IMG/VR virus record: IMGVR_UViG_3300021255_002076
Span: 7,148-71,147 of that record
Direction: 5' to 3' (one strand)
Length of the DNA stretch: 64,000 nt
Source of the DNA: a virus
Taxonomy: Duplodnaviria; Caudoviricetes
The position numbers and the translations under genes are program-made. Every line of letters begins with the position of its first letter. The first letter of the stretch is position 1. Below are positions 6,902-63,333 of this stretch, piece by piece. The notes under the pieces were generated by a model. It was given only the letters and a program-made list of their open reading frames with translations, searched no databases and had not been told where the DNA came from.

Positions 6902-9208
6902 ATGGCATATGTAAATCTCGGGAGTATGCCGTCTCCAAAGAAGGAATACATGGTTGACTTTCCGCAGCTGAATGGCGGACTTAATTTACAGGAACTTGAC
7001 TACCGTATTCAGAACGATGAAACGCCGGAAATGAAGAATCTCTTATGGAGAGACGGCATTCTGAGCAGTCGTAGAGGACAGTCGTGGGTGAATGATTCCA
7101 TCGGGGGAGAGTACCATGCTTCTTATGAGTCCCTGTGGAACGGAATGATTTTTGAGCATTCCGGTAATCAGATAGTGATGTTTGATCCGGAAAGCGGCGA
7201 AAGAACGGCCTTATACACCGGTGGGGAAGATATGGTTACCCATGGTACGTTCTTTCCTTATAATGAAAAACTTTATTATAAAACAAAAGGATACTATGTC
7301 GAGATAGAGTACGACGGCACTGATTTTACAGCTGTGGATGTAGAAGGCTACACACCTGTTACGTATATCAGCTGTTCGTATCTGAACGGATCCGGAACTG
7401 TGTATCAGCCGGAGAATAGGCTAAGTCCTAAGAAAACGTTATGGTATAACTCGGCATTTACATTAAATACAATAGTTAACGGCGGCATTACCGCTGTCGT
7501 CGAAGACGCTTACTTCAGAAAATCGATAAGCGAACCCGGGATGTACATCTTTTCCTACAATGGCCAGAAGTGGCTCTTGAACGGAACGGAAGTAAACATC
7601 CTGGATTATGGCGTAACGATAGGCGGGACTCCAGTGAATGGGAACACGGTCACAGTTGTCTTCACTTTCGTCAGTGAGTATCAGCTGCCTGTTCCGGCGA
7701 GCTCACTTACTAACGTAGAAGTAGAGGGAATTGAGTTCTCGCAAGAGACGCTGGACATCACAGCAAGTTCCGGGCGCATAAGTGTGGCTGTGGATAAAGG
7801 CGTATTTCGAAACAAGGTAACGGAAGACGCGGATCTGGAGTTCGTGTATAACTATGACGCTCTCCCAACTGAGGGCTGGGAACTCGATGGTGTTCTGGTC
7901 GATCTGGCAGAATATGGTATGGTGGCGTCAAAAACGGAAGCCTTTGTAACAGGGGACAGCATTCGTGCTCAGTACCATAGAGGCGAATACCATATCGATT
8001 ACGAGACGAACAGGGTTTGCTTCTTTGCGGCGCCAAGAGTTACGTATCCGGAGATTCATAACACAGTTCATATAACATACTCTTCTGAGAACGAACTTGC
8101 GTACAAGAATGTTATGGACTGTGCGATGGTATCGGTTTATGGCGGTACAGGTGCCCTGTGTATTGTCATGGCCGGGAGTGAGACCCAGCCGAATGCTTAC
8201 TTCTGGAACGGCCAGACATCAATAGCAATGGACGCTTCTTACTTCCCTGTGACTCAGTACCAGCTTGCCAGTGACATGGTTGATCCGATCAGGGGCTTTG
8301 GTAAGCAGCAGGGGTATCTGATCATTTTCAAGAATGGATCTGTTGGAAGAACATCCCTCAACACAGAAACGGTTGAAGGGAGAATGACAATCGATTTGCC
8401 GTATACACCTATCAACGCAAAGATAGGGTGCGATCTCCCGTGGACTATACAGCTGATTGAGAATAACCTCACCTGGTGCAATACGGAGTCCGGTGTTCAC
8501 TTCCTCGCGAACACATCTTCTGCATACGAGAACAACGTGATCTGCATCAGCGACAAGGTGAAGTCGTCCAACAGCAGATGGACAACCGGATTACTGGATG
8601 ATGTTCGGTACAAGGATCCGGAGAAGATCTGCTCGCACGATGATGGCTACCGGTACTGGCTGATTGTGGATGGGGAAGTATGGCTCTGGGATTATTACCT
8701 CAGTAACTATAAGAATCCGGCATGGTTTTATTTTGATAATGTCTACGCACGAGGGGTAATTCAGCAGGCAGCAAATATCTGGCATATCGATACAGAGAGC
8801 AGGCTGACCAAATTTGTGGATGTGTTTACAGATTATGGCAGCGCTATAGATAAGGTATACAGGTTCGCGACGCAGTACTTCGGAACGTATGACAACAAGA
8901 AGAATGTAAATTCTGTAATAATAAACATGAGACCGACCACGAACTCCGTGGTCGATATTACTTATCTGACGGATTATGAATCAAGACATGACCTGACGCC
9001 ACTTGCAGCGGTATCGTGGTCTCTGGTTCCGAGAGATCTGTCATACAGAAATCTGGCGGGTTCCGGTTTTGCAAAGGTGTTTAGGAGAAAACCGCATTGC
9101 AGGAGAGTACAGTATTTTACTATGCGGCTTGAAAACAATGAAGCGAACATGGATATGGCGGTTGTATCTGCACAGATTTACTACACTTACCAAGGGAGGC
9201 AGAGATAA
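6902..9208 (+). CDS. Tail nozzle / DNA-stabilisation protein (P22 gp10 / T7 gp12-like)
   Basis: 768 aa, beta-rich, N-terminal LNGGLNL motif, syntenic with the adaptor. Confidence 0.65.
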   Translation: MAYVNLGSMPSPKKEYMVDFPQLNGGLNLQELDYRIQNDETPEMKNLLWRDGILSSRRGQSWVNDSIGGEYHASYESLWNGMIFEHSGNQIVMFDPESGERTALYTGGEDMVTHGTFFPYNEKLYYKTKGYYVEIEYDGTDFTAVDVEGYTPVTYISCSYLNGSGTVYQPENRLSPKKTLWYNSAFTLNTIVNGGITAVVEDAYFRKSISEPGMYIFSYNGQKWLLNGTEVNILDYGVTIGGTPVNGNTVTVVFTFVSEYQLPVPASSLTNVEVEGIEFSQETLDITASSGRISVAVDKGVFRNKVTEDADLEFVYNYDALPTEGWELDGVLVDLAEYGMVASKTEAFVTGDSIRAQYHRGEYHIDYETNRVCFFAAPRVTYPEIHNTVHITYSSENELAYKNVMDCAMVSVYGGTGALCIVMAGSETQPNAYFWNGQTSIAMDASYFPVTQYQLASDMVDPIRGFGKQQGYLIIFKNGSVGRTSLNTETVEGRMTIDLPYTPINAKIGCDLPWTIQLIENNLTWCNTESGVHFLANTSSAYENNVICISDKVKSSNSRWTTGLLDDVRYKDPEKICSHDDGYRYWLIVDGEVWLWDYYLSNYKNPAWFYFDNVYARGVIQQAANIWHIDTESRLTKFVDVFTDYGSAIDKVYRFATQYFGTYDNKKNVNSVIINMRPTTNSVVDITYLTDYESRHDLTPLAAVSWSLVPRDLSYRNLAGSGFAKVFRRKPHCRRVQYFTMRLENNEANMDMAVVSAQIYYTYQGRQR

Positions 9209-57558: not shown

Positions 57559-57910
57559 ACCTGTTCTTCACACGCTGATATTCTTCATCAAGATCTTCCC
57601 AAAGATCCCCGGACCACCCACCATCTACATAGTGATAGGTGTGGCCCTCTTCTATCTCGCTTGGAAGAAAAGAACCGTAGGAGGATTCAACAAAATCAAA
57701 GAGGAGTCTCGCTGCTTGTGCATCAACTATGTGAATATAAGAGGCTTCGTTAAAGACTTCCTCTAAATCATCCATATCGAATAGATCTAAGTCTTCATCG
57801 AATACAAGTACACTATCTGTATTCCTATATACCGCCTCATATGCAAGGCATTCTTCCTCGGTATCAAACTCCGTACCATCATCAGATCTATATGTCGTTA
57901 TTATTTCCAT
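57521..57910 (-). CDS. Hypothetical protein
   Basis: Acidic 129-aa ORF; YRSDDGTEFDTEEECLAYE. Confidence 0.55.
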   Translation of the reverse strand: MEIITTYRSDDGTEFDTEEECLAYEAVYRNTDSVLVFDEDLDLFDMDDLEEVFNEASYIHIVDAQAARLLFDFVESSYGSFLPSEIEEGHTYHYVDGGWSGDLWEDLDEEYQRVKNRYDSVQEALQEIG

Positions 57911-59282
57911 GTTTTATATATCCTTTCAATGCATCCAGTAAGGACTTCTGTGTAGCATCTTTACTTTGTAAAACTCGCAGTACCTTATCATCTAATGTAT
58001 CATCACATATAATATGGTGGACAATCACCGGATGCTCCTGGCCTTGCCTATGAAGCCGTGCAATTGATTGCTGGTAATTCTCAAGAGAAAAAGGGAGACC
58101 GAACCACACCATGATGTGTGATCCTTCCTGTAGATTGATCCCGTACCCGGCTGAGGCTGGATGGCAAAGGAGCATTGGTATCTCACCGTTGTTCCACTGC
58201 TCGATATCCGCGCTGCCTTTCAACACTACTGCCTCCGGATGCCGTTTCAGAATCCGTTCCAGGTCGTGCTTGTAAGAATAGAACACCAGTAGTGGCTGGC
58301 TCTGTGAAGCCTCTACGATTTCGTCAAGTGCATCAAGCTTCTGATCGTGGAGCCAGAACACTCCTCCGCTGTCGTCGTAGACCGCTCCGTTTGCCATCTG
58401 TAACAACTTCCCGGAGAGCGTGGCCGCTGTCTCCCCAATAACTGCGGAGTCCATGGTATCGATTGATCCCAGCTTGCTCTCGAGAAGAGGCAGGACTTTA
58501 TCATTTTTAAACTGCTCATATACTTTTCTTTCTTTAGCTGTCATCCTCACCCTTACCTCATTAAAGGTAATAGGCGGCATGCTCAGCCAATCCGTTTTGC
58601 TCATCGATAAACAGGTAGAGGAGAGACGAGAATCTATATTCGCTTTTGCTCCCGGCTTAAGTAGATACTCGTAAACGATGTGTCCCTTATGCGCACCCAC
58701 ATTAAAATACTTGCTACGATATTGGCCGATCGTTTTACCGAGCGCCTCTCCTCCATCTATTAGAAACATCTCAGCCCAAAGGTCCATGTACCCATTCGCC
58801 GCAGGGGTTCCTGTCAGACCCCAAACGTAATCGGATAACTTAATCACTGTACGAAGCCTCCGAAACCGCTTGGCTTGCGCAGACTTGAAGCTGGACAATT
58901 CATCTATAATCACCAGGTCGAATGGCCATCTACCGGACAGGCTTTCAACAAGCCATTGGACATTCTCCCGGTTTATGACATAGATATCTGCGTCTCGCTT
59001 GAGGGCGGCTGTTCGTTCTTTGGCAGAGCCAAGTACTTTCTCAATCCTTAGGCTTTGAAGATGATCCCACTTAGAACACTCCCGGGTCCACGTATCTTCT
59101 GCAACGCGCTTGGGAGCTATCACTAAAACCTTTTCTACCTTAAAGTCATCGATCAATTCCCTCGCTACGGTCAGAGCTGTTACCGTTTTTCCAAGGCCCA
59201 TATCAAGGAACAATGCGCATCGCTTGTGGGTCCTTAGGAAATCCATTGATATGAGTTGATGTGGCTTAGGCTCGAACTTCAT
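57888..59282 (-). CDS. SNF2-family helicase
   Basis: DMGLGKT, IIDELS, LTGTP, HPASAGYGINLQ and QSIARLHRQGQ. Confidence 0.9.
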   Translation of the reverse strand: MKFEPKPHQLISMDFLRTHKRCALFLDMGLGKTVTALTVARELIDDFKVEKVLVIAPKRVAEDTWTRECSKWDHLQSLRIEKVLGSAKERTAALKRDADIYVINRENVQWLVESLSGRWPFDLVIIDELSSFKSAQAKRFRRLRTVIKLSDYVWGLTGTPAANGYMDLWAEMFLIDGGEALGKTIGQYRSKYFNVGAHKGHIVYEYLLKPGAKANIDSRLSSTCLSMSKTDWLSMPPITFNEVRVRMTAKERKVYEQFKNDKVLPLLESKLGSIDTMDSAVIGETAATLSGKLLQMANGAVYDDSGGVFWLHDQKLDALDEIVEASQSQPLLVFYSYKHDLERILKRHPEAVVLKGSADIEQWNNGEIPMLLCHPASAGYGINLQEGSHIMVWFGLPFSLENYQQSIARLHRQGQEHPVIVHHIICDDTLDDKVLRVLQSKDATQKSLLDALKGYIKHGNNNDI

Positions 59283-60263: not shown

Positions 60264-60479
60264 TTAACTATCTCCTCTTACCTTATAATCTTTCATCGCA
60301 TACAACAGACAAAGATCGGAGCAATAATAAACATTGTTATCCATCTCATAGCGATCATCGTAGGACCAGATCTCCTGGCCACAAACATCACAATGCCCTA
60401 CCAGATAGGGACCTTCCGGATCTATTGTCATCGCTTTATCAATCTTTCCTATATGAACTACAGTAATAACCATCGGCAT
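60264..60479 (-). CDS. Small Zn-binding hypothetical protein
   Basis: CDVC...CSDLC. Confidence 0.5.
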   Translation of the reverse strand: MPMVITVVHIGKIDKAMTIDPEGPYLVGHCDVCGQEIWSYDDRYEMDNNVYYCSDLCLLYAMKDYKVRGDS

Positions 60480-63333
60480 TGAGGGGAAGGCCTTCCATCC
60501 ACGGAGCGCCTTTGCACATCAGCTGGATAGCTTCTTCCAGAGTGCCATGGTCATACGGATCTGTGATAATAACTTCATCGTGAACCGTGGCCCGGACATC
60601 GTATCCGGCTTTGTCCAAATTGAAAAGTGCTTCTTTGAGGCAGTCTCTTGCGGTTGCCTGGATGAGATTTTCTGTCAGTTTCCCGCCGAATGTCTCTGTA
60701 CGCTCCCACTTACGTGTCGTCTGGTTCATACTCATGTAGGTCATCGACGGACGGCCCCATCTGTCCTGGCCCATAGCCGCGCCCCAATAAGCAATCCGTC
60801 TTCCGGAAGGAAGGGACATCCACATCACTCCATCCTCCAAGTCAAAACGGATATGGCCAACTGTCGAGATCGTAGGCTTACCTCTCTTGATACACCTAAT
60901 AGCTGCATCCTCCAGAGACTTCCACAAAGCTACGATGTGAGGGGAGGCCTCTCTCCACTTAGCTACCAGATCGGACATCTCATCTTCCTTCATGCCCATG
61001 CGGTCTGCTCCAAAATTCTTCATCGCTCCTACGCCACCGCCGTATCCGCAATTGTGGACGAGCTTTCCCGATACGGTGTAACGATGATGTCTTCCGGCAT
61101 TTCGTATGTCATAGACTCTAGCCTTGCCTTTATACCGCGCCAGTTCTTTCTCCTGTCGTATACAGCATCCTGAGCCTGTTGAATAATTTGCTCCCTTGAG
61201 TAGCCCTCTGATAGTTTCCGGATCACTACTGTCTTTGAATATGGCCAGTACTGCTGATCCCATCTTGACAACACACATCGCCTCTGATTTATACAGTTCG
61301 TCTTGTGGGTAGCCCAACGGAGATTCCCCGGAGCATAATCCCCGTTCGTATCTATTCTGTCGATCTCCATACTCCGATCCGGTAAACCCAGATTGTCTAT
61401 CATCCAGACCCCCGCTGTTATCACACTCGGAAATGCGAACTTGATGCCTCTCGCTCCGTAGTTCTTGTATCCCTTGTCCTTCGGATTCTCGCATCTCTGT
61501 TTCGCCGAGGTCAGTCTCCTGTCTAGCCAAAGCGGGATCTTGCGCGGTGCTTCGGAGCAATTCTGACAACCAGCTGATCTGCCACTTGTTATTGCATTCA
61601 GACTCGTCCAACCTATGTATCCACACCCAGTGCATTCCGTAAGAACGTAACAGTGATTCCAGCTCGCGCTCCATCTCTTTTCTGGCCCTATTATTTTCAC
61701 CCAGCCATATTGTGTTCCAACCATCTCCGGTTTGTATGAGATGTGCGCCGCAGGCGGCGGCGACTCCAAAGTGTATTGGCTCCGGTTGCCCCTCGACGAA
61801 GACGAGGTGGTCTGCTGTTGCTGTGAGTCCTTCGTATTCGTAGACATCTTTTACTCCTTTGTATATAACGCCTTCGTGTTCGACCCAGTCTTCACCATCC
61901 CAGACTCTCATCTCGGTAGTAACATCTTGAATAGGAACGAGGCCATGATCGGTAAGAACAAGCTGGTCTTCAGCTATGCAAGCAAGTTCAATGATCTTAC
62001 CCTTTGCTCTGAGCTCTCCGTTGATCCCATGCTTCACGACGGGAACTTTAAATGCTCGACTGGCAGAGGCGCAGTAGATATCCTCGCCATTGGCAAAAGC
62101 TTGGATTCTCCATTCCTCATTTGCAATCCACGCAATCACTCTCGCCTCGATGGCGGAGAAGTCTGCAACGATCAGTCTGCTATTCTCCTCCGGTATGATC
62201 ATGGTCCTAATCAATGCCGACAATGCAGTCTGTACTTTAGGGTAGAAGCACTCAAAGTCTTCTTCGTCTCCGAGTAAAGCCAGGGCCCTGGCATCATCCA
62301 GGTCGGGAAGGGTATCATGCGGAAGATTCTGTAGCTGTACCAACCGGCCAGCCCATCTTCCCGTTGAAGCACCATAAAACTGGAAAGTTCCTCGGACGTG
62401 ATTGTCCTCGCAGCAAGACCGGAGGAAGGCTTCATACTTTTTATTAGAGCTCTTAGAAAACTCTTCCCTTAGTTTAAGAACCTCCTTAGTCTGGTCTTCA
62501 GATAAGGAAGCATACACATCAGCAATGGCTTTCTTATTTAAAGAAAGAACTTCGATACCTTCCTGCTCCTCTAGCCACTGTTTGATCTGGGCTGTAGAGT
62601 TAGGATTCTCCAGCCCCGTGAGTTGTTTACAATGCGCAATCAACTCATCACGGTACTGATCCCCAATCCGAATAGCGTTCTCTGCAAGCTTCGGTTCGAT
62701 GCGGACACCCTTGTCGTTCATCCGCTGATCGAGACACCAGAGCTTTTGTTCTGAGAAGTCCGGCCTCCACTTCAGCAAACGCTGGCGGATCGTGTTCTCC
62801 GTCTCGACATCTCGTCTGTTATATTCAACAAACGTCGCCCACTTCTCTGGAGCATCCTCCGGTCTGTTCCGTGTTCTCCCACCATTAGCTTTAGTAGACT
62901 TGCACGGCTGACAGAAGTACCGGATAAGCTCTTTGCCTTCCTTCATCTTCGCTTTGTCTTCCGGTAACTCCAGTGCTGCACCGACGCCTGCAAGGGAGAG
63001 GGGAAGACCACAGGATGCGGAGAGGATCATTGTACAGGACCACTGTTCCGGTTCACAGTATCTACCGAACCACTTCGACAGACATGTCCGCTCGAAGTTA
63101 GCATTGAAAGCAGTCTTCTCTACCTCCGGATCGTAAAGCCAATCAACTATCTCAGTAGGTACTCCATCGTTCCTAGTCATGTCAATCACAGTTACCGGAC
63201 CATAGTCACAAGAGTAGGCGAAAAGCAGGATCTCGAAGTCGTCGGATTCCACGTACTTGTAAGCGCCACACTTGCCGATGTCTACGGAGGAGTAGGTTTC
63301 GAGATCTATACTGAGTGTCCGTGGCTTATTCAT
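60439..63333 (-). CDS. Family A DNA polymerase containing an intein (654 aa after splicing)
   Basis: Exo IDLET, TGRWAGR..QLQN, motif A DFSAIEARV, motif B KGKIIELA|CGYGG and motif C TVHDE. Confidence 0.92.
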   Translation of the reverse strand: MNKPRTLSIDLETYSSVDIGKCGAYKYVESDDFEILLFAYSCDYGPVTVIDMTRNDGVPTEIVDWLYDPEVEKTAFNANFERTCLSKWFGRYCEPEQWSCTMILSASCGLPLSLAGVGAALELPEDKAKMKEGKELIRYFCQPCKSTKANGGRTRNRPEDAPEKWATFVEYNRRDVETENTIRQRLLKWRPDFSEQKLWCLDQRMNDKGVRIEPKLAENAIRIGDQYRDELIAHCKQLTGLENPNSTAQIKQWLEEQEGIEVLSLNKKAIADVYASLSEDQTKEVLKLREEFSKSSNKKYEAFLRSCCEDNHVRGTFQFYGASTGRWAGRLVQLQNLPHDTLPDLDDARALALLGDEEDFECFYPKVQTALSALIRTMIIPEENSRLIVADFSAIEARVIAWIANEEWRIQAFANGEDIYCASASRAFKVPVVKHGINGELRAKGKIIELACIAEDQLVLTDHGLVPIQDVTTEMRVWDGEDWVEHEGVIYKGVKDVYEYEGLTATADHLVFVEGQPEPIHFGVAAACGAHLIQTGDGWNTIWLGENNRARKEMERELESLLRSYGMHWVWIHRLDESECNNKWQISWLSELLRSTAQDPALARQETDLGETEMRESEGQGIQELRSERHQVRISECDNSGGLDDRQSGFTGSEYGDRQNRYERGLCSGESPLGYPQDELYKSEAMCVVKMGSAVLAIFKDSSDPETIRGLLKGANYSTGSGCCIRQEKELARYKGKARVYDIRNAGRHHRYTVSGKLVHNCGYGGGVGAMKNFGADRMGMKEDEMSDLVAKWREASPHIVALWKSLEDAAIRCIKRGKPTISTVGHIRFDLEDGVMWMSLPSGRRIAYWGAAMGQDRWGRPSMTYMSMNQTTRKWERTETFGGKLTENLIQATARDCLKEALFNLDKAGYDVRATVHDEVIITDPYDHGTLEEAIQLMCKGAPWMEGLPLNADGYYCSSYRKD
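61029..61847 (-). CDS. HNH-type endonuclease nested in the intein in the +1 frame
   Basis: RCENPKDKGYKNYGARGI...IDRIDTNGDYAPGNLRWAT..N..N; AAAGGAG lies 6 nt before ATG 61847. Confidence 0.85.
   Translation of the reverse strand: MSTNTKDSQQQQTTSSSSRGNRSQYTLESPPPAAHISYKPEMVGTQYGWVKIIGPEKRWSASWNHCYVLTECTGCGYIGWTSLNAITSGRSAGCQNCSEAPRKIPLWLDRRLTSAKQRCENPKDKGYKNYGARGIKFAFPSVITAGVWMIDNLGLPDRSMEIDRIDTNGDYAPGNLRWATHKTNCINQRRCVLSRWDQQYWPYSKTVVIRKLSEGYSREQIIQQAQDAVYDRRKNWRGIKARLESMTYEMPEDIIVTPYRESSSTIADTAVA
61051..61980 (-). mobile_element. 310-aa class 1 intein in polymerase motif B
   Basis: C1 block A CIAEDQLV, block B TADH, block F VYDI and block G VHN|C. Confidence 0.9.

Follow-up and report, generated by a model that had tools for sequence, protein, structure and literature searches.

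The family-A DNA polymerase gene of a virus of the Caudoviricetes is interrupted by an intein of class-1 type, and the central part of the sequence encoding that intein also carries, on the same strand in the +1 frame, a gene for a predicted HNH-like protein with initiation signals of its own. The sequence studied, here called the window, comprises 64,000 nucleotides (positions 7,148 to 71,147) of the 71-kb IMG/VR virus record IMGVR_UViG_3300021255_002076, whose estimated completeness is 87%. We put at about 0.8 the probability that the arrangement is a composite selfish element, consisting of an intein in motif B of a phage PolA and an HNH-like gene overprinted on its centre. Each of the two frames is open and shows purifying selection in its own region, the start signals of the +1 frame are conserved, both products yield folds on modelling, and the site is polymorphic among related alleles, with an island of identity shared by some of them. 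A preliminary description made from the window's letters alone had proposed such an element, with the nuclease made as a free protein and the intein tolerating an off-frame linker, and that proposal is supported by the substitution pattern in each frame, by the existence of empty alleles, by copies elsewhere with the same offset and by the stop-free state of the polymerase frame.

The interrupted polymerase and its intein

The precursor open reading frame (ORF), intein included, occupies positions 60439..63333 on the minus strand, on which all the features discussed here lie, and specifies 964 amino acids with a Pfam DNA_pol_A match at E 3e-24. Its N-extein of 451 amino acids (61981..63333) ends in R-A-K-G-K-I-I-E-L-A, the first part of motif B (the O-helix), and its C-extein of 203 amino acids plus stop (60439..61050) starts with C-G-Y-G-G, the remainder of the motif. 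Over its final 75 residues the N-extein can be aligned to Klenow, Taq and M. smegmatis Pol I, with the R..K pair at the start of motif B; this pair corresponds to R754 and K758 in Pol I residue numbering, by which the insert falls between the equivalents of residues 763 and 764, in the O-helix and two residues ahead of the conserved Tyr. The C-extein alone found no match at E≤1e-3 in a PDB sequence search, and the phage collection likewise gave none when searched by megablast with the polymerase gene, the element being detected there at the protein level only.

The intein is 310 amino acids long, from C452 to N761 of the precursor (61051..61980), and has the residues of a class 1 intein, Cys1, T55-A-D-H58 as the TxxH block at 55-58, and H309-N310, followed by Cys as the +1 residue. 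Among 56 aligned inteins C1, H58, H309 and N310 are invariant and T55 is nearly so. In intein-free alleles the sequence ELA-CGYGG is uninterrupted and the +1 Cys is already present. An AlphaFold model of the frame-0 product, built from the 56-sequence alignment, has confidence scores (pLDDT) of 94-97 for residues 1-80 and 92-93 for residues 281-310, exceeding 90 throughout 1-85 and 277-310, and values of about 33 with zero secondary structure for residues 92-276. Its best Foldseek matches are all inteins (Npu DnaE, the Ssp DnaB mini-intein, gp41-1 and the DnaX mini-intein), with probability 1.0 and an E of only about 4e-3 because the linker dilutes the score. By sequence, the PDB match of the N part is to the corresponding part of the Neq (Nanoarchaeum) Pol split intein at E 0.002, and matches in Pfam, NCBIfam and the PDB are confined to the N-terminal end of the intein, so that no recognisable domain is seen in the centre. 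On the model, frame 0 gives a HINT domain whose two parts are joined by a disordered linker of some 185 residues. The N-terminal splicing lobe is given by codons 1-90 (61711..61980) and the C-terminal one by codons 277-310 (61051..61152), and between them the linker, codons 92-276 (61153..61707), is the off-frame reading of the nuclease gene, stop-free and otherwise unconstrained in frame 0. The preliminary description had the polymerase frame continuing through a 310-residue intein in motif B, had the splicing residues, and had a centre without a recognisable endonuclease domain, and each of these is borne out.

Selection on the two frames

The overprinted ORF of 819 nucleotides (61029..61847) encodes 272 amino acids, the HNH-like putative homing endonuclease, and is in the +1 frame of the same strand, as (63333-61847) mod 3 = 1. 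With its stop it extends 22 nucleotides into the part encoding the C-extein. Selection on the two frames was analysed with 58 representatives of less than 90% nucleotide identity, the median identity over all 90 unique sequences being 65%, and the ratio of nonsynonymous to synonymous substitution (dN/dS) was obtained by the Nei-Gojobori method for 156 pairs. At codons 1-60 of the intein dN/dS is 0.12 in frame 0 and 1.3 in the +1 frame; the order is reversed at codons 61-95, with 0.89 and 0.17, and most strongly so at codons 96-280, with 1.6 and 0.09, and at codons 286-310 frame 0 is again the more constrained, with 0.23-0.29 as against 0.7-0.9. Amino-acid columns counted as conserved (at least 70% identical) make up 63% in frame 0 and 15% in the +1 frame at codons 1-60, 57% and 77% at codons 61-95, 7% and 60% at codons 96-285, and 76% and 60% at codons 286-310. 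The most variable codon position is correspondingly the frame-0 wobble position at codons 1-60 and 286-310 and the +1 wobble position at about 65-285. At the 5′ junction (codons 61-95; 61696..61800) both frames are constrained and entropy is low at all three codon positions, and residues 61-85 belong to the confidently modelled part of the HINT domain.

The contrast between the ends and the centre had been predicted and is what the values give. For the central overlap they point to purifying selection on the endonuclease frame with the amino-acid constraint on the host frame relaxed. The further claim that about 800 nucleotides are dual-coding stands as far as both frames are open over that length, but simultaneous constraint is limited to about 35 codons at the 5′ junction (61-95) and about 15 at the 3′ junction.

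Openness of frame 0 in the centre is itself a selected property. When the synonymous codons of the nuclease ORF were shuffled 2000 times, with its protein and codon usage kept, the central 187 codons read in the polymerase frame acquired 5-14 stops, and in the natural sequences there are none (22 of 22); shuffles free of stops numbered at most 2 in 2000 for any of the 22. With no stops where 5-14 are expected, frame 0 is actively kept open.

Start signals of the +1 frame

A Shine-Dalgarno-like AAAGGAG (61854..61860) stands 6 nucleotides ahead of the +1 ATG (61845..61847); the former is built of the intein codons for K-G-V and the latter of those for D-V. This origin of the initiation signal in intein codons, and likewise the frame and length of the ORF and the site of its stop, had been noted in the preliminary description and agree with the coordinates. 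In 55 of the 58 representatives the +1 ATG is at intein codon 45 or 49. The common one is formed by TAT-GAA (Tyr49-Glu50), 4 codons downstream of the ATG in the window, and its GAGG, which comes from Glu45-Val46, is 9 nucleotides upstream of it. The codon for Tyr49 is TAT in 53 of 57 sequences, set against 36% TAT at the remaining Tyr codons of the intein, and that for Glu45 is GAG in 42 of 51, set against a 30% baseline (binomial p about 1e-19 and 1e-14, respectively, values which overstate significance because the sequences are related). The synonymous choices thus suggest that the ATG and its GAGG are held in place for a reason other than the amino acids they specify. The window is among the few copies with TAC at codon 49, and it has an ATG at codon 45 with a stronger Shine-Dalgarno sequence, a change that reads as compensation for the lost codon-49 ATG.

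Most copies have a +1 stop codon 1-3 codons ahead of the conserved ATG, which counts against fusion by frameshifting as the normal route to the product. Since free-standing homologues, described below, start near residue 40 of the window's product, the second conserved Met, at residue 42, could also be a start; there a GGAG directly abuts the ATG.

The +1 product

The +1 product matches two families of the PHROG collection that are annotated as HNH, phrog_374 at E 9e-23 and phrog_3377 at E 3e-20. An AlphaFold model built from an alignment of 60 sequences has a mean pLDDT of 87 and consists of a beta domain with four conserved Cys (residues 35-90, or 35-82 in a narrower delimitation), a core (100-192) and a helical tail (196-250). 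The four Cys form a CxxC...CxxC arrangement (C72, C75, C94 and C97; 61557..61634), a putative zinc site whose columns are invariant or nearly so. The core (61272..61550), with the motif ...D-R-I-D...G-N-L-R...N, is HNH-like on the PHROG matches and on a weak match to the fold of PacI.

Distribution

A tblastn search with the +1 product found five Streptococcus Javan phages, PhiSdyV1524 and the Gardnerella phage vB_Gva_AB1, at 57-64% identity, and in these phages the +1 ORF lies under a single coding sequence annotated 'DNA polymerase'. Four of the records were examined (loci L001-L004 of our numbering; GenBank MK448670, OQ418408, MK448719 and MW387018). Each has one 'DNA polymerase (I)' coding sequence of 960-967 amino acids, the +1 offset is identical in all four, and neither the intein nor the +1 ORF is annotated in any of them.

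Scans of IMG/VR and of the GTDB genomes added 157 further loci. The GTDB prophages are in Lachnospiraceae, Ruminococcus, Oscillospiraceae, Negativicutes, Erysipelotrichia, Peptoniphilus, Anaerococcus, Gardnerella and Actinomycetaceae, and also in metagenome-assembled genomes labelled Synergistaceae and Spirochaetaceae. Cultivable lysogens with the element include Ruminococcus callidus ATCC 27760 (L095), Faecalicatena contorta JCM 6483 (L089), Gardnerella strains (L133, L134) and Streptococcus constellatus, which has the Javan phages. Where both intein junctions could be placed, phage and prophage contigs from the two collections gave 115 full-length inteins of 307-312 amino acids, 104 of them exactly 309; of the 30 loci missed by the first pattern, most either read CGYQG in the extein or run off the end of a contig. 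No stop in the polymerase frame was found in any of the 115, and the +1 ORF is at least 190 amino acids long in 114. The same element, with the identical frame offset, is therefore present on well over 100 other phage and prophage contigs, which the preliminary description had suggested looking for.

Homologues of the +1 product that are near its full length number 454, and an exhaustive profile-free search matched 51,505 representative proteins with E≤1e-3, a number that falls to 1846 with E≤1e-10. All seven of the distant homologues traced (31-43% identity) are in the +1 frame of a contig-wide open frame with intein motifs, and the signatures at their N and C termini come from splicing blocks B and F read out of frame. 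In four of them (L179, L181, L184 and L185) the host is motif B of a more distant family-A polymerase, with the insertion in L184 apparently about 3 residues upstream; the extein of L183, which starts CFLVLYGG, was not placeable and is possibly PolA motif B. In the remaining two (L180, 1-1105, and L186, 1-1031) the element is just past helicase motif VI, in the context ...GR..RL.P..GK.N↓C...N↓C(I/L)VLDY.GN with arrows at the junctions, and the unit has therefore colonised a second host gene.

Free-standing relatives, 28% identical over query residues 39/40 to 224/226, are 'HNH endonuclease' genes of Staphylococcus and Acinetobacter phages. There are also forms in which the two frames are joined. 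In five database proteins of 484-781 amino acids (P0271-P0275) the polymerase and intein frame runs into the nuclease frame, in each at a different point; frameshift mutation or sequencing error may account for them, or they may possibly be split forms in transition to the arrangement of L187, a naturally split family-A polymerase (L187:3001-5662; Logan contig SRR17201898_4073). The first gene of L187, of 573 amino acids, comprises a PolA N-extein, the N-terminal intein part (IntN) and an in-frame nuclease of this HNH-like family; the second, of 316 amino acids, overlaps the first by 11 nucleotides and comprises the C-terminal intein part (IntC; ...N↓CNWQNLP) and the C-extein. The insertion is at a PolA site other than that of the window, and the whole looks like a fractured gene with the nuclease fused to IntN. 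A contiguous in-frame HNH intein of this family, in a polymerase of about 960 amino acids, was not found in a search of limited power, and no intein or polymerase domains were found in longer proteins with the nuclease domain (P0177, P0236, P0250, P0254 and others). The in-frame fusions found were limited to five scattered frameshift products and one split-intein form, and the homologues do not show an ordinary HNH intein in one frame.

Empty alleles, mini-inteins and movement

Polymerase genes whose products are 77-94% identical to the N-extein of the window occur in three states: empty in L162, L166 and L167, with a mini-intein in L163 and L165, and with the full element in L164. The uninterrupted ELA↓CGYGG alleles that the preliminary description had proposed should be sought accordingly exist, in the three empty genes. 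L163 and L165 (IMG/VR 3300031867_003805 and 3300021400_000136) have an N-extein 92-94% identical to that of the window and a different mini-intein of 124 amino acids, whose first approximately 90 and last approximately 40 nucleotides are 95-97% identical to those of the window's intein and whose core is about 55% identical, a mosaic that suggests recombination between occupied alleles. In L162 about 360 nucleotides of the C-extein are 97-98% identical to the window, yet the gene is intein-free. The polymerase gene reads as a mosaic at the nucleotide level.

In other mini-inteins, of 133-157 amino acids (L076-L079 and L154-L158), approximately codons 107-282 are deleted and both ends of the nuclease ORF are kept, and these are therefore deletion derivatives of the full form. 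An intein of 263 amino acids also occurs. Decayed copies were noted in which the polymerase frame is open and the +1 ORF is reduced to 197 (L002, PhiSdyV1524-fexAoptrA), 146 (L100) or 219 (L101) amino acids, and in L031 and L032 it is the polymerase frame that stops, after 292 intein residues.

The identity of intein and extein was compared by nucleotide alignments and pairwise checks. L056 shares with L060/L153 an intein at 90-98% identity and approximately 150 nucleotides on each flank at 85-90%, with the remaining polymerase gene at 55-72%, and such an island has the pattern expected of homing with co-conversion. Presence/absence polymorphism at a fixed site and co-converted flanks are thus both observed.

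A probable composite element and its alternatives

If the arrangement is a composite selfish element, ribosomes in the polymerase frame would make a precursor in which the two parts of the HINT domain (about 1-90 and 277-310) are joined by the disordered linker of about 185 residues, and protein splicing would excise the whole insert and rejoin ...ELA to CGYGG..., restoring the O-helix. Other ribosomes would initiate at the internal Shine-Dalgarno sequence and ATG formed of intein codons and make a separate protein of 272 amino acids, with a zinc-binding beta domain, an HNH-like core and a helical tail. The most likely role of that protein is to cut or nick polymerase alleles without the element, and recombinational repair would then copy intein and nuclease gene together into the cut alleles, that is, homing.

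Several points weigh against this reading. Splicing, translation of the +1 ORF, nuclease activity and the target of the nuclease are what we infer from sequence; for splicing, the evidence is indirect, namely that 115 copies of a replication gene keep the polymerase frame open across the insert. No Pfam or NCBIfam family, HNH models included, reaches threshold for the +1 ORF, HNH_3 is touched by one of 60 family members at E 0.007, and PDB sequence searches with the +1 product, both as a single sequence and as a profile, return chance-level matches only. Foldseek with the +1 model gives no match at E≤1e-3 (PacI E 0.18, Gme HNH E 0.39). Among relevant folds that of PacI matches best, but weakly (Z 5.6, root-mean-square deviation 3.5 Å over 81 residues, within model residues 100-192), and as VIA-align scores are only middling, in a range where common arrangements also score, an HNH fold is not claimed as shown. 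The position of the canonical general-base His is occupied by an invariant Arg (R164), in the motif D-R-I-D; HNH_3-type proteins read D-H-I-D with the catalytic His at that position. Downstream, N175 and N187 are conserved in the +1 product. The zinc ribbon and HNH-type nuclease of the preliminary description accordingly hold in part: the CxxC...CxxC and the PHROG families speak for them, but the structural match is weak and the canonical His is Arg, and the protein is best called HNH-like, with nuclease activity as its probable function. As to initiation, conserved intein residues are encoded where the Shine-Dalgarno sequence and ATG lie, and amino-acid constraint therefore accounts for part of the conservation of these signals; the synonymous-site test that addresses this ignores phylogenetic non-independence. 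As to movement, the identity of the intein exceeds that of the exteins by more than 10 points in 1083 of 3655 pairs and the reverse is seen in 0, an excess which is by itself no proof of transfer, since dual coding slows the divergence of the intein.

The alternative to which most weight should be given, itself unlikely, is that the +1 protein is made but does not act as a homing nuclease on the empty polymerase site, being instead a DNA-binding or nicking protein with another role, or a nuclease aimed at mini-intein alleles whose gene parasitises the intein rather than the polymerase. The Arg in place of the canonical His and the thin evidence for an HNH assignment fit this, as does the different mini-intein of L163, the closest allele, which resembles the outcome of conversion between occupied alleles, confined to the intein core, and the published model is of a mini-intein invaded by a free-standing endonuclease gene (bioRxiv 10.1101/2025.01.02.630785). 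However, the island shared by L056 and L060/L153 covers the whole intein together with flanking extein, which means that the nuclease gene travelled with its intein; the two are also found together in at least two host genes, suggesting that they spread as a unit; and neither the position of the gene nor its homologues suggest another function.

Much less probable is that the +1 ORF is an untranslated, decaying relic of a past invasion within an intein that is now vertically inherited. Truncated copies (L002, L100 and L101) and mini-inteins exist, as the homing cycle itself predicts, but a relic would hardly show a +1 dN/dS of 0.09 across 58 representatives or an ATG and Shine-Dalgarno sequence conserved at synonymous sites, the window's copy is full-length with a compensated start, and the identity islands and empty alleles point to recent movement. 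Production of the nuclease by ribosomal frameshifting, as an N-extein-intein-nuclease fusion rather than by internal initiation, is more doubtful still. The two frames are on one mRNA, natural fusion products exist, and the in-frame fusion of IntN and nuclease in L187 is apparently a normal gene product; yet the +1 stop shortly ahead of the ATG in most copies, the properly spaced Shine-Dalgarno sequence and the conservation of the ATG at a synonymous site all favour a separate start, and a slippery sequence was not seen, though no search aimed at one was made. The idea that the two frames are an artefact, an assembly or sequencing frameshift in an ordinary intein with an in-frame HNH domain, has next to nothing in its favour beyond the five polymerase-nuclease fusions, which demonstrate that frameshifted copies exist, as a frameshift cannot leave both frames open over 800 nucleotides, the offset is identical in 115 independent assemblies that include complete genomes and isolate phages, frame 0 lacks the 5-14 stops expected, the fusions join the frames at different points and are without the C-extein, and, on a search too limited to carry much weight, no polymerase of about 960 amino acids with an in-frame nuclease was found. 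A composite of intein and overprinted gene remains the reading that best accounts for these observations.

Comparison with known systems

Endonucleases encoded out of frame within inteins have been published, and the present family is a new, unusually large and well-replicated case of a rare architecture. The cyanobacterial dnaX intein has an out-of-frame LAGLIDADG ORF, with a preprint crediting the proposal to Gorbalenya 1998, and its suggested origin is a secondary invasion of a mini-intein (bioRxiv 10.64898/2026.09.14.751524). The two systems have in common a splicing domain in the host frame with an overlapping endonuclease ORF, low dN/dS for the endonuclease frame with high dN/dS for the host frame, and the co-existence of mini-intein and empty alleles. 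They differ in that the dnaX ORF is of LAGLIDADG type, is a '+2ORF' and is in the cellular dnaX, whereas here the product is HNH-like, the frame is +1 and the hosts are phage PolA and helicase genes; here too, the start codon is just upstream of splicing block B and the stop is in block G or the C-extein.

Inteins of actinobacteriophages have antisense LAGLIDADG and VSR-like ORFs, and also a same-strand endonuclease VII-like ORF in frame 3; from these Gosselin, Arsenault and Gogarten proposed that inteins were invaded by free-standing endonuclease genes (bioRxiv 10.1101/2025.01.02.630785). The preliminary description had mentioned out-of-frame cases in this group, correctly. Shared with them are the phage location, an endonuclease that is not in frame, a centre without structure in the intein frame and evidence of continuing transfer. 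Their hosts are genes for terminase, minor capsid protein, thymidylate synthase and DNA polymerase, the only polymerase family named being Pol III alpha. Apart from the Gardnerella phage, no actinobacteriophage was among the best 40 rows of our tblastn search of the phage collection.

In ShiLan an out-of-frame HNH insertion is present in actinophage DNA methylase genes (Arsenault et al. 2025, PMC11855218), similarly with an HNH hidden in an alternative frame of an insertion that is stop-free in the frame of the host gene. There, no splicing domain is detectable and the insertion is thought to be retained as a loop, unlike the situation here, where a complete HINT domain with all splicing residues is present. 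Fractured genes, in which a free-standing endonuclease gene stands between the halves of a split intein (Dassa et al. 2009, PMC2677866), also tie an intein to a non-LAGLIDADG endonuclease outside the intein frame, and the relative L187 is truly split; the intein of the window, in contrast, is contiguous and its nuclease gene is overprinted rather than placed between two genes. The free-standing genes homologous to the overprinted one, exemplified by gp082 of Staphylococcus phage phiSA_BS1 and gp40 of Acinetobacter phage YMC-13-01-C62 (phrog_374 and phrog_3377), are stand-alone, intergenic and specify about 215 amino acids; the overprinted form extends further by about 40 residues at the N terminus and 25-45 at the C terminus, stretches that arise from reading the splicing blocks of the intein out of frame. 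In the literature we found no description of inteins in PolA or helicase genes from prophages of Bacillota or Gardnerella that carry an HNH-like ORF in the +1 frame.

Wider significance and neighbouring genes

Cellular and phage genomes seldom contain overlapping genes in which both readings are functional, and annotation usually misses those that exist. In the present family over 100 diverged copies serve as natural replicates of a single overprinting event, with clean signatures of selection. The family is a good system for questions on the union of two selfish elements, a splicing domain and a nuclease gene, into a single mobile unit, on the size of disordered insert that a HINT domain can accommodate, and on the persistence of internal initiation within an essential gene. 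The arrival of intein endonucleases through invasion of mini-inteins is a view that it likewise supports, and it may show how split inteins can arise. On the practical side, such polymerases are mis-sized in phage annotation, and the +1 proteins appear as orphan 'hypothetical proteins' from short contigs.

It is tempting to go further and see in these loci a large, old and undescribed clade of 'locked' inteins, in which the nuclease start and stop lie within splicing blocks, spread across phyla and in at least three sites and with a split descendant, though we hold this to be somewhat short of an even chance. If it is so, neither parasite could easily be lost without damage to the other; the spread would take in prophages of Bacillota and Actinomycetota and those in the assembled genomes labelled Synergistaceae and Spirochaetaceae; the target sites, at least three, would be PolA motif B, a second PolA site and motif VI of a superfamily 2 helicase; and the descent of L187 would represent a direct route from contiguous to split inteins.

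Adjoining the polymerase gene in the window is an ORF of 464 amino acids (57888..59282, minus strand) whose product by eye resembles an SNF2-type helicase, and an SNF2 gene is in the corresponding neighbourhood of a relative's locus (L185). In related phages the upstream genes are annotated DUF2800 and DUF2815.

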